9,090 nt of DNA, taken from NCBI RefSeq assembly GCF_003334355.1, contig NZ_QOWP01000060.1. One strand, written 5' to 3'. Numbering within the stretch: position 1 is the first letter of the stretch; every line of letters begins with the position of its first letter. Below, one piece after another: positions 181-1,639 of the stretch. Source of the stretch: Escherichia coli. GTDB taxonomy: Bacteria; Pseudomonadota; Gammaproteobacteria; Enterobacterales; Enterobacteriaceae. A program made the position numbers and the translations under genes. The notes below the pieces were generated by a model. It was not told where the DNA came from and made no database searches. It saw only the letters and a list, made by a program, of their open reading frames with translations.

Positions 181-1639
181 CGCAAATAGATAACGATTTT
201 GGCCTGCATATCATCTATTTCCTGCAACATGGTCACTGGAAGGTAAATGATCGTAGTCACCAGATGGAGAAAGTATGGTTTTATAATAGTGAACCTTCTA
301 TAGATATTCAAGGATATAATAGATTCGCCGACAATACTACTGATACGTTTATCTTTACAATTATACCAGACAATAACCATGTGTTAAAATTATCGTCTCC
401 CATTACCGTTACTGTTGAGTGTAAGGGCGGTTATTATTTTATTAATTCCTCTGGAGATAAATCAGATATAATTTATAAAGTTGATGGGCTTTCTATCATA
501 GCGAGAAATTTCTTTACTCTTCTTAGTGGTAATTTCAAACCTGACTGGCGTTGGGATGTCTCTAAAGAGACGTTTACTAAGGAAAAGTTTGATAGCTATG
601 TTAAATCTGTGTTTTCAAAAATAGACTTCTATAAACAGTGTGGTGTGATTAACCCACAAAATGCCAACACGGCTTATTTTGGCGATACAGATGGAAGAGT
701 AGGCGCTGTACTTTATGCATTGCTCGTTTCAGGGCATATAGGCATCAGGGAAAAGGGTTGGAGTTTATTATGTGAATTATTAAAACACGAAGAGATGGCT
801 TCATCTGCATACAAACATAAAAATAATAAAGTGCTCTACGATTTATTAAATACGAGAGACATGATCTTGAATGAGTTGCATCAACATGTTTTTTTAAAGG
901 ACGATGCGATAACCCCTTGTATCTTCCTTGGGGATCATACAGGCGATAGATTTAGTACTATTTTTGGTGATAAATATATCCTTACTTTGCTAAATTCTAT
1001 GCGAAATATGGAGGGTAATAAAGATAGCCGTATTAATAAAAATGTCGTCGTTCTGGCTGGAAATCATGAAATCAATTTTAATGGTAACTATACTGCACGA
1101 CTAGCAAATCATAAACTCTCTGCCAGTGATACGTATAACTTAATTAAAACGCTCGATGTTTGTAATTATGACTCAGAAAGGCAAGTTTTAACCAGTCATC
1201 ACGGAATAATAAGAGATGAAGAAAAAAATGTTATTGTCTCGGTGCTTTGCAGGTTCCATTTAATCAGATGAAAAATCCTACTGATCCTGAGGAATTAGCC
1301 AATATTTTTAATAAAAAACATAAAGAACACATGGATGATCCTCTATTCCATCTAATCCGAAGCAATACTTTGAAACCCACACCTGTATATGCTAATTATT
1401 TTGATAACACTACTGATTTCAGACCAGCACGTGAACGTATCTTCATATGTGGGGAGACACTCAAAGGTGAAGACCCCAGCAAATACATTAGACAAAAATA
1501 TGGGCATCATGGGCCCGGGGTAGATCATAATCAACAATTTGATAATGGTATTATGGGGCTAAATTCCCTGAAGGAAGCACGTGATAAAAATAATAAAATA
1601 ATTTATTCCTCAGGGCTTAGTTGTTTTCAACCACATTAA
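181..1639 (+). pseudogene. yhiL: DUF4049-family gene, paralog of the downstream 540-aa gene (yhiL-like); 5' end removed by IS1 insertion and internally frameshifted
   Basis: ORF track fragments 264..1271 (frame 0) and 1247..1639 (frame 2) both align to the 1901..3523 product: AYFGDTDGRVGAVLYAL vs TYFGDTDGSVGAVLFAL; FLGDHTGDRF...VVLAGNHE vs FLGDQTGDRF...HVLAGNHE; DPEELANIFNKKH vs DPVELAAIINKKH. Frame 0 is open from the IS1 junction (181) to 264 and still encodes homologous sequence (LHIIYFLQHGHWKVNDRSHQ vs SIVYLLNNMTVNDNANDVAV), so the gene is interrupted at about the position of YhiJ residue 120. The frame switch lies around 1225-1255. Gene symbol is assigned from recalled K-12 synteny, not from a search. 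Confidence 0.75.

Follow-up and report, generated by a model that had tools for sequence, protein, structure and literature searches.

The window, which is the whole 9,090-nt stretch of Escherichia coli DNA that was analysed, begins with one end of an IS1 element (positions 1–180, minus strand) that includes the terminal inverted repeat together with the first part of the transposase gene and is 98–100% identical to IS1 family transposase records. From position 181 onward, the gene order is yhiL-yhiJ-yhiY-yhiI-rbbA-yhhJ, as in the corresponding E. coli region. Positions 181–1639 (plus strand) were identified by alignment to the intact coding sequence (CDS) of strain AR_0014 as the remnant of a single yhiL gene of the YhiJ/YhiL family, which ends at the native yhiL stop codon TAA at 1637–1639. 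The paralogous yhiJ gene (1901–3523, plus strand), which served as the reference for homology, is intact and encodes a 540-aa protein with a DUF4049 domain, as established from the list of open reading frames (ORFs) and by a Pfam search.

Intact YhiL (WP_000643701.1, annotated as 'YhiJ/YhiL family protein', for example in AR_0014) is 535 aa long and is encoded by a 1608-nt CDS. Base 181 of the window corresponds to nucleotide 149 of this CDS (position 3001 of the AR_0014 sequence L002, in which the CDS covers 2853–4460), and the initial 148 nt of the CDS are missing from the yhiL remnant, as is the promoter. A scan of positions 1–1900 for promoters and terminators gave 12 promoter-like sites, compared with 7.8 ± 3.4 in shuffled sequences, and no terminator.

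The IS1 element abuts yhiL at 180/181, and its transposase gene, the CDS of which is on the opposite strand, reads away from yhiL. Bases 1–180 are identical to those of the IS1 in strain PSS-12 (NZ_AP027697.1), and PSS-12 alone among 5,426 complete genomes has exactly the IS1 junction of the window. In PSS-12, IS1 (768 bp, L013 positions 1783–2550) is found in place of 1786 bp of the AR_0014 sequence (L014 positions 1018–2803). The lost segment comprises yhiM, the spacer between yhiM and yhiL, and the 5' part of yhiL specified above, and the junction in the window is identical. As judged by this comparison, the junction reflects an IS1-associated deletion. In dozens of complete E. coli genomes, IS1 is located elsewhere inside or beside yhiL, with the transposase CDS lying between yhiL fragments, which suggests that the region is an IS1 hot spot or that insertions have been tolerated repeatedly.

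The remnant includes two ORFs, one at 264–1271 in frame 0 and the other at 1247–1639 in frame 2. The ATG at 264 is the first start codon in frame 0 after an in-frame stop codon at 90–92, and the yhiL sequence in this frame covers positions 183–1271 (plus strand). The frame-2 segment, previously named yhiK, covers positions 1229–1639 (plus strand). Both segments were defined by the ORF list together with BLASTP and Pfam searches. In BLASTP, the product of the frame-0 ORF matched YhiJ residues 110–383 (E 3e-59), and that of the frame-2 ORF matched residues 391–487 (E 3e-13). In Pfam, the first ORF covered DUF4049 model positions 1–201 (E 1.3e-113) and the second positions 207–333 (E 2.3e-71), and YhiJ gave a full match to positions 1–333 (E 1.2e-179). 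The split-domain matches of both ORFs are judged from these values to exceed chance by far. Residues 1–87 of the first ORF further matched positions 39–125 of the 125 positions of DUF6860 (E 5e-47), the N-terminal part of this domain being missing because of the truncation by IS1.

It had been predicted originally that homology to YhiJ runs from the first ORF into the second as in one disrupted gene, and the collinear BLASTP matches and the single DUF4049 domain divided between the two frames bear this out; the fragments did not fall on different homologs. Alignment of the YhiJ and intact YhiL proteins was likewise collinear across the site of the frameshift. An uninterrupted ORF of ~535–540 aa is absent, as yhiL is truncated at 181 and frameshifted at 1222–1228. 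Thus, the remnant is a pseudogene and not a functional member of the YhiJ/YhiL family.

Three alleles without the frameshift, those of PSS-12, AR_0014 and strain 124, were used for mapping of the lesion. Pairwise and multiple DNA alignments revealed a single frame-breaking indel, namely a run of seven A residues (A7) at 1222–1228 (plus strand) in place of eight (A8), and no other indels were present relative to the closest in-frame alleles. The intact alleles read GAA GAA AAA AAA TGT TAT at this site, and the window reads GAA GAA AAA AAT GTT. Frame 2 is open from 1220, following a TGA at 1217–1219, and frame 0 closes at the TGA at 1269–1271; hence, the A-run lies within the only interval where a change of 1 nt joins the two frames. 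When one A was added, a continuous open frame extended from 183 to the native stop codon, with the junction peptide ...DEEKKCYCLGALQVPFNQMK across the A-tract. The alignment to intact homologs therefore defined the position of the indel and agreed with the net 1-bp deletion that had been proposed, and the A7 run is located where it had been described. However, the switch between frames had been placed at about 1225–1255, which is slightly too far downstream, as the A-run itself is the lesion.

Replication slippage at the homopolymer would have shortened the coding poly-A tract by one base, A8 becoming A7. Rates of indels climb steeply with homopolymer length, and slippage was regarded as the probable mechanism for this reason. 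The original frame would then be read through 14 out-of-frame codons up to the premature TGA, so that, of the 535 codons in the intact gene, the final 137 are lost, or about 130 DUF4049 positions. Purifying selection on yhiL is probably weak or absent. For the one pair of intact yhiL alleles compared (AR_0014 and strain 124), dN/dS was 0.96, and for yhiJ in the window versus strain 124 it was 0.25. Between AR_0014 and strain 124, dS was 0.22 in the 3' part of yhiL and 0.007 in the 5' part, which points to a recombined mosaic.

The annotated yhiL pseudogene of K-12 MG1655 (b4660) has 1607 nt, 1 nt fewer than the intact gene, and includes the same A7 tract. Both the premature stop and the two ORF fragments are therefore shared with the window, and the statement in the original prediction that K-12 yhiL is a frameshifted pseudogene, possibly with this very lesion, was correct. 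The gene occupies the same locus in K-12, between yhiM/yhiN and yhiJ-yhiY-yhiI-rbbA. Unlike in the window, yhiM and the beginning of yhiL are retained in K-12, and there is no IS1 at this site. The two sequences differ at positions 313, 1125 and 1632 within 181–1639 and by 8 SNPs over 8.9 kb, and K-12 has four private SNPs that are not found in the window.

In a deletion table of W3110 genes, yhiL and yhiK have separate entries beside yhiJ (PMC10652928), which matches an older reading of the same two fragments as two genes. A literature search for yhiL as a pseudogene found no report, and a broader search gave incidental mentions only. The two ORFs deserve annotation as one pseudogene, as is already the case in the K-12 reference annotations and in those produced by the NCBI annotation pipeline PGAP, and the lesion is of an already known, ordinary and annotated kind of gene decay.

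The closest relative, PSS-12 (AABK13_RS15635), shares with the window the IS1/yhiL junction, the 180 bases of IS1, and the bases 313G and 2466C. Over 8.9 kb, it differs by 3 SNPs and by the tract, which is A8 in PSS-12, and it has 1125G. Because of the A8 tract, the remnant in PSS-12 is in frame up to the native stop, and it is annotated as 'incomplete; missing N-terminus'. Within the collection, PSS-12 is the sole genome in which the base 313G was found.

The intact allele of AR_0014 has a complete 5' end with yhiM upstream, the A8 tract and one ORF, and is identical to the window over 181–1900 except for positions 313 and 1125 and the tract. The substitutions at 313 (GAA to GGA) and 1125 (GGT to AGT) relative to AR_0014 are both non-synonymous. 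The presence of only two substitutions within 181–1639 fits a recent loss of the gene, and the suggestion of recent decay made beforehand is in keeping with this count together with the one indel. The description of the copy as doubly inactivated also stood, given the IS1 end with the missing start of the CDS and, in addition, the frameshift. Two bases, 1125A (which replaces Gly by Ser in the dead copy of yhiL) and 8087A (in yhhJ), are private to the window in comparison with PSS-12, AR_0014 and K-12.

The A7 tract common to the window and K-12 is probably a shared lesion that is not due to shared descent, since the tract is A8 in the sister allele, that of PSS-12, with its identical IS1 junction and 313G. 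With high probability, the window carries a dead copy of yhiL that would have lost its 5' end in an IS1-associated event and its reading frame by a change from A8 to A7, the latter likely after IS1 and independently of K-12.

The locus is carried by about 4,170 of the 5,426 complete E. coli genomes. When an identical 42-nt flank was required on each side, the tract was A8 in 1,745 genomes, A7 in 812, A6 in 3–4 and A9 in about 1. A7 genomes, including K-12, thus make up about a fifth of those with the locus, and the occurrence of A6 and A9 indicates that the tract length does vary. Carriers of A6 are a DH5alpha assembly, PSJ-12 and 23CRST024; in the first of these, the tract either slipped once more or was assembled wrongly. 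Seven A7 copies from strains other than K-12 were fetched, and all were 'frameshifted' according to PGAP.

For 60 genomes sampled at even spacing, the state of the tract was judged from the match span; all alleles with ≤95.7% identity were A8, and the A7 alleles fell into two classes, one K-12-like and the other intermediate. The variable sites of 13 alleles displayed strong mosaicism, with A7 present on several flanking haplotypes, and among these alleles the tract state failed the four-gamete test with SNPs 112–205 bp away. Therefore, the tract has undergone more than one change, transfer by recombination, or a combination of the two. As far as these tests on aligned alleles go, a single origin of A7 without recombination is incompatible with the data, and the failures fit recombination as well as recurrent slippage. 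Lineages could be marked by the state of the tract (A7 or A8), by the IS1 junction and by 313G.

The original prediction had left it as a question whether the frameshift predates the insertion of IS1. Truncation by IS1 first and the frameshift later is the order that is favoured with modest confidence, because PSS-12, the sole sharer of the junction and 313G, is A8. The sequence of events would then be an A8 ancestor, insertion of IS1 with deletion, and a change from A8 to A7 in the line of the window, in parallel to that in K-12. The opposite order, in which the window inherited its A7, or acquired it by recombination, from the ancestral A7 allele to which that of K-12 also goes back, and PSS-12 re-expanded its tract to A8 after the insertion of IS1, is less likely but is a serious alternative. 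The K-12-like haplotype often carries A7 (in about 8 of 20 rows sampled with ≥99.5% identity), and A7 alleles with the 1632C of the window exist, as in strain E3, so that A7 could have been imported by recombination into a locus that is visibly mosaic. With fewer than two changes of tract length, the four closest haplotypes cannot be accounted for by any scenario, and an A7 ancestor with reversion of PSS-12 to A8 is equal in the count of events.

On the other hand, every divergent lineage sampled is A8, as is an abundant haplotype that differs from PSS-12 by one SNP, and the window and PSS-12 share the derived 313G and the IS1 junction, yet differ in the length of the tract. Reversion in PSS-12 would also have to be neutral, as the gene was already truncated. 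Thus, on the evidence of the A8 tract in PSS-12, the frameshift more likely postdates IS1.

A miscall of the homopolymer, i.e. a sequencing or assembly artefact in a source genome that is truly A8, is improbable. Homopolymers of 7–8 bases are typical error sites on several sequencing platforms, the A8 tract of the nearest relative PSS-12 would be in line with such an error, and no complete E. coli genome in the collection combines the IS1 junction of the window with A7. The A6 tract in the one DH5alpha assembly may itself be an error of this type, given that K-12 is A7. However, A7 is real and common, being present in the 812 genomes counted above, among them many independent assemblies of K-12. 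The window also has its private substitutions 1125A and 8087A and therefore is not simply PSS-12 with an error. As regards the order of events, a miscall may instead lie in the assembly of PSS-12.

Weaker still is the explanation of the A-tract as a functional switch, either a contingency locus or a site of –1 ribosomal or transcriptional slippage that rescues full-length YhiL. Slips by –1 do happen on A-runs, and if tRNA-Lys slipped in this way on the A_AAA_AAT of A7 alleles, exactly the ..EEKKCY.. sequence of the intact protein would be restored. Natural tract lengths range from A6 to A9, and A7 and A8 alternate among haplotypes that are 1–3 SNPs apart. Nevertheless, the frameshift is not conserved, most alleles being in frame, and no stimulatory structure was found downstream (the fold of 1229–1300 is –11.6 kcal/mol, z = +0.37 versus shuffles). 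Eight A residues are also short for a contingency tract. The dN/dS value of about 1 for the one pair of intact alleles indicates that the ON allele is not kept by purifying selection, and further nonsense lesions pile up in A7 alleles. In the window, the start codon and promoter are lost, and the question of recoding is therefore moot there. It would accordingly be very surprising if toggling between A8 and A7 switched a WipA-like phosphatase paralog, or if low-level slippage on A_AAA_AAT gave full-length YhiL.

Programmed –1 sites on A-runs are known in dnaX (A_AAA_AAG) and in insAB' of IS1 (A_AAA_AAC), and like these the yhiL tract is an A-run where a –1 shift would join two frames. Unlike these, the yhiL frameshift is a polymorphic mutation, the heptamer ends in T, and downstream structure is lacking. 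A programmed frameshift was rejected, as there is no conserved requirement for it (the A8 genomes with identical flanks are in frame) and no such structure, and the yhiL A-tract is outside the programmed –1 frameshift class.

The reading of the two ORFs as two genuine short genes, which is that of the original annotation of yhiL and yhiK and persists in their separate naming in the gene list 'yhiL; yhiK; yhiJ' (PMC10652928), can be dismissed, as the ORFs are consecutive halves of one Pfam domain, are both collinear with one paralog and are fused in A8 genomes as one 535-aa ORF, and the only start codon of the second ORF is a TTG within the overlap.

The dead copy of yhiL retains sequence motifs that are shared with YhiJ. 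The weak Pfam matches obtained were to Metallophos (E 0.013 for YhiJ and 0.011 for the first yhiL ORF) and to WipA_Phos (E 0.031). In NCBIfam, T4SS_Wip, the family of the Legionella Dot/Icm effector Wip, was matched with E 0.0023 and 17 bits versus a cut-off of 300, and no family was above its cut-off for YhiJ or either yhiL fragment. All of these hits lie over GDxTGDR...GNHE, at residues 280–390 of YhiJ and at residues 220–314 of the first yhiL ORF (positions 921–1205). In the protein alignment, both paralogs have the motifs GDTDG, GD(H/Q)TGDR, GNHE and HHG without variation; the series with which they were compared is that of calcineurin-like enzymes, GDxHG / GDxxDR / GNHE / H / GHxH (Pfam PF00149 clan). 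Sequence searches of the PDB with YhiJ alone and with a profile of four sequences gave no match. YhiJ and YhiL may be divergent WipA-like metallophosphatases, which is a reasonable lead. The earlier statement that catalytic-type motifs are intact holds for the sequence, but the label 'catalytic' depends on weak matches with E about 0.01. A conserved His/Gly-rich segment, GHHGPG, lies downstream of the frameshift; hence, the product of the first ORF alone would lack it and be incomplete.

Across much of E. coli, yhiL looks dispensable, with the A-tract as the most frequent point of failure, and the locus illustrates, on a small scale, the parallel decay of such a paralog next to its constrained sister gene yhiJ. 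Other lesions were observed in yhiL. A nonsense codon at the equivalent of ~1098 is shared by strains 100181, CUVET17-972, O104:H4 and EC596, and the T at this site is also present in CFSAN051542, which has a nonsense codon at the equivalent of ~546. In-frame indels of 18 nt are present at about 472 and about 1467 in other lineages. The yhiJ gene itself is annotated as frameshifted in strain 100181 and in O104:H4 FDAARGOS_349.
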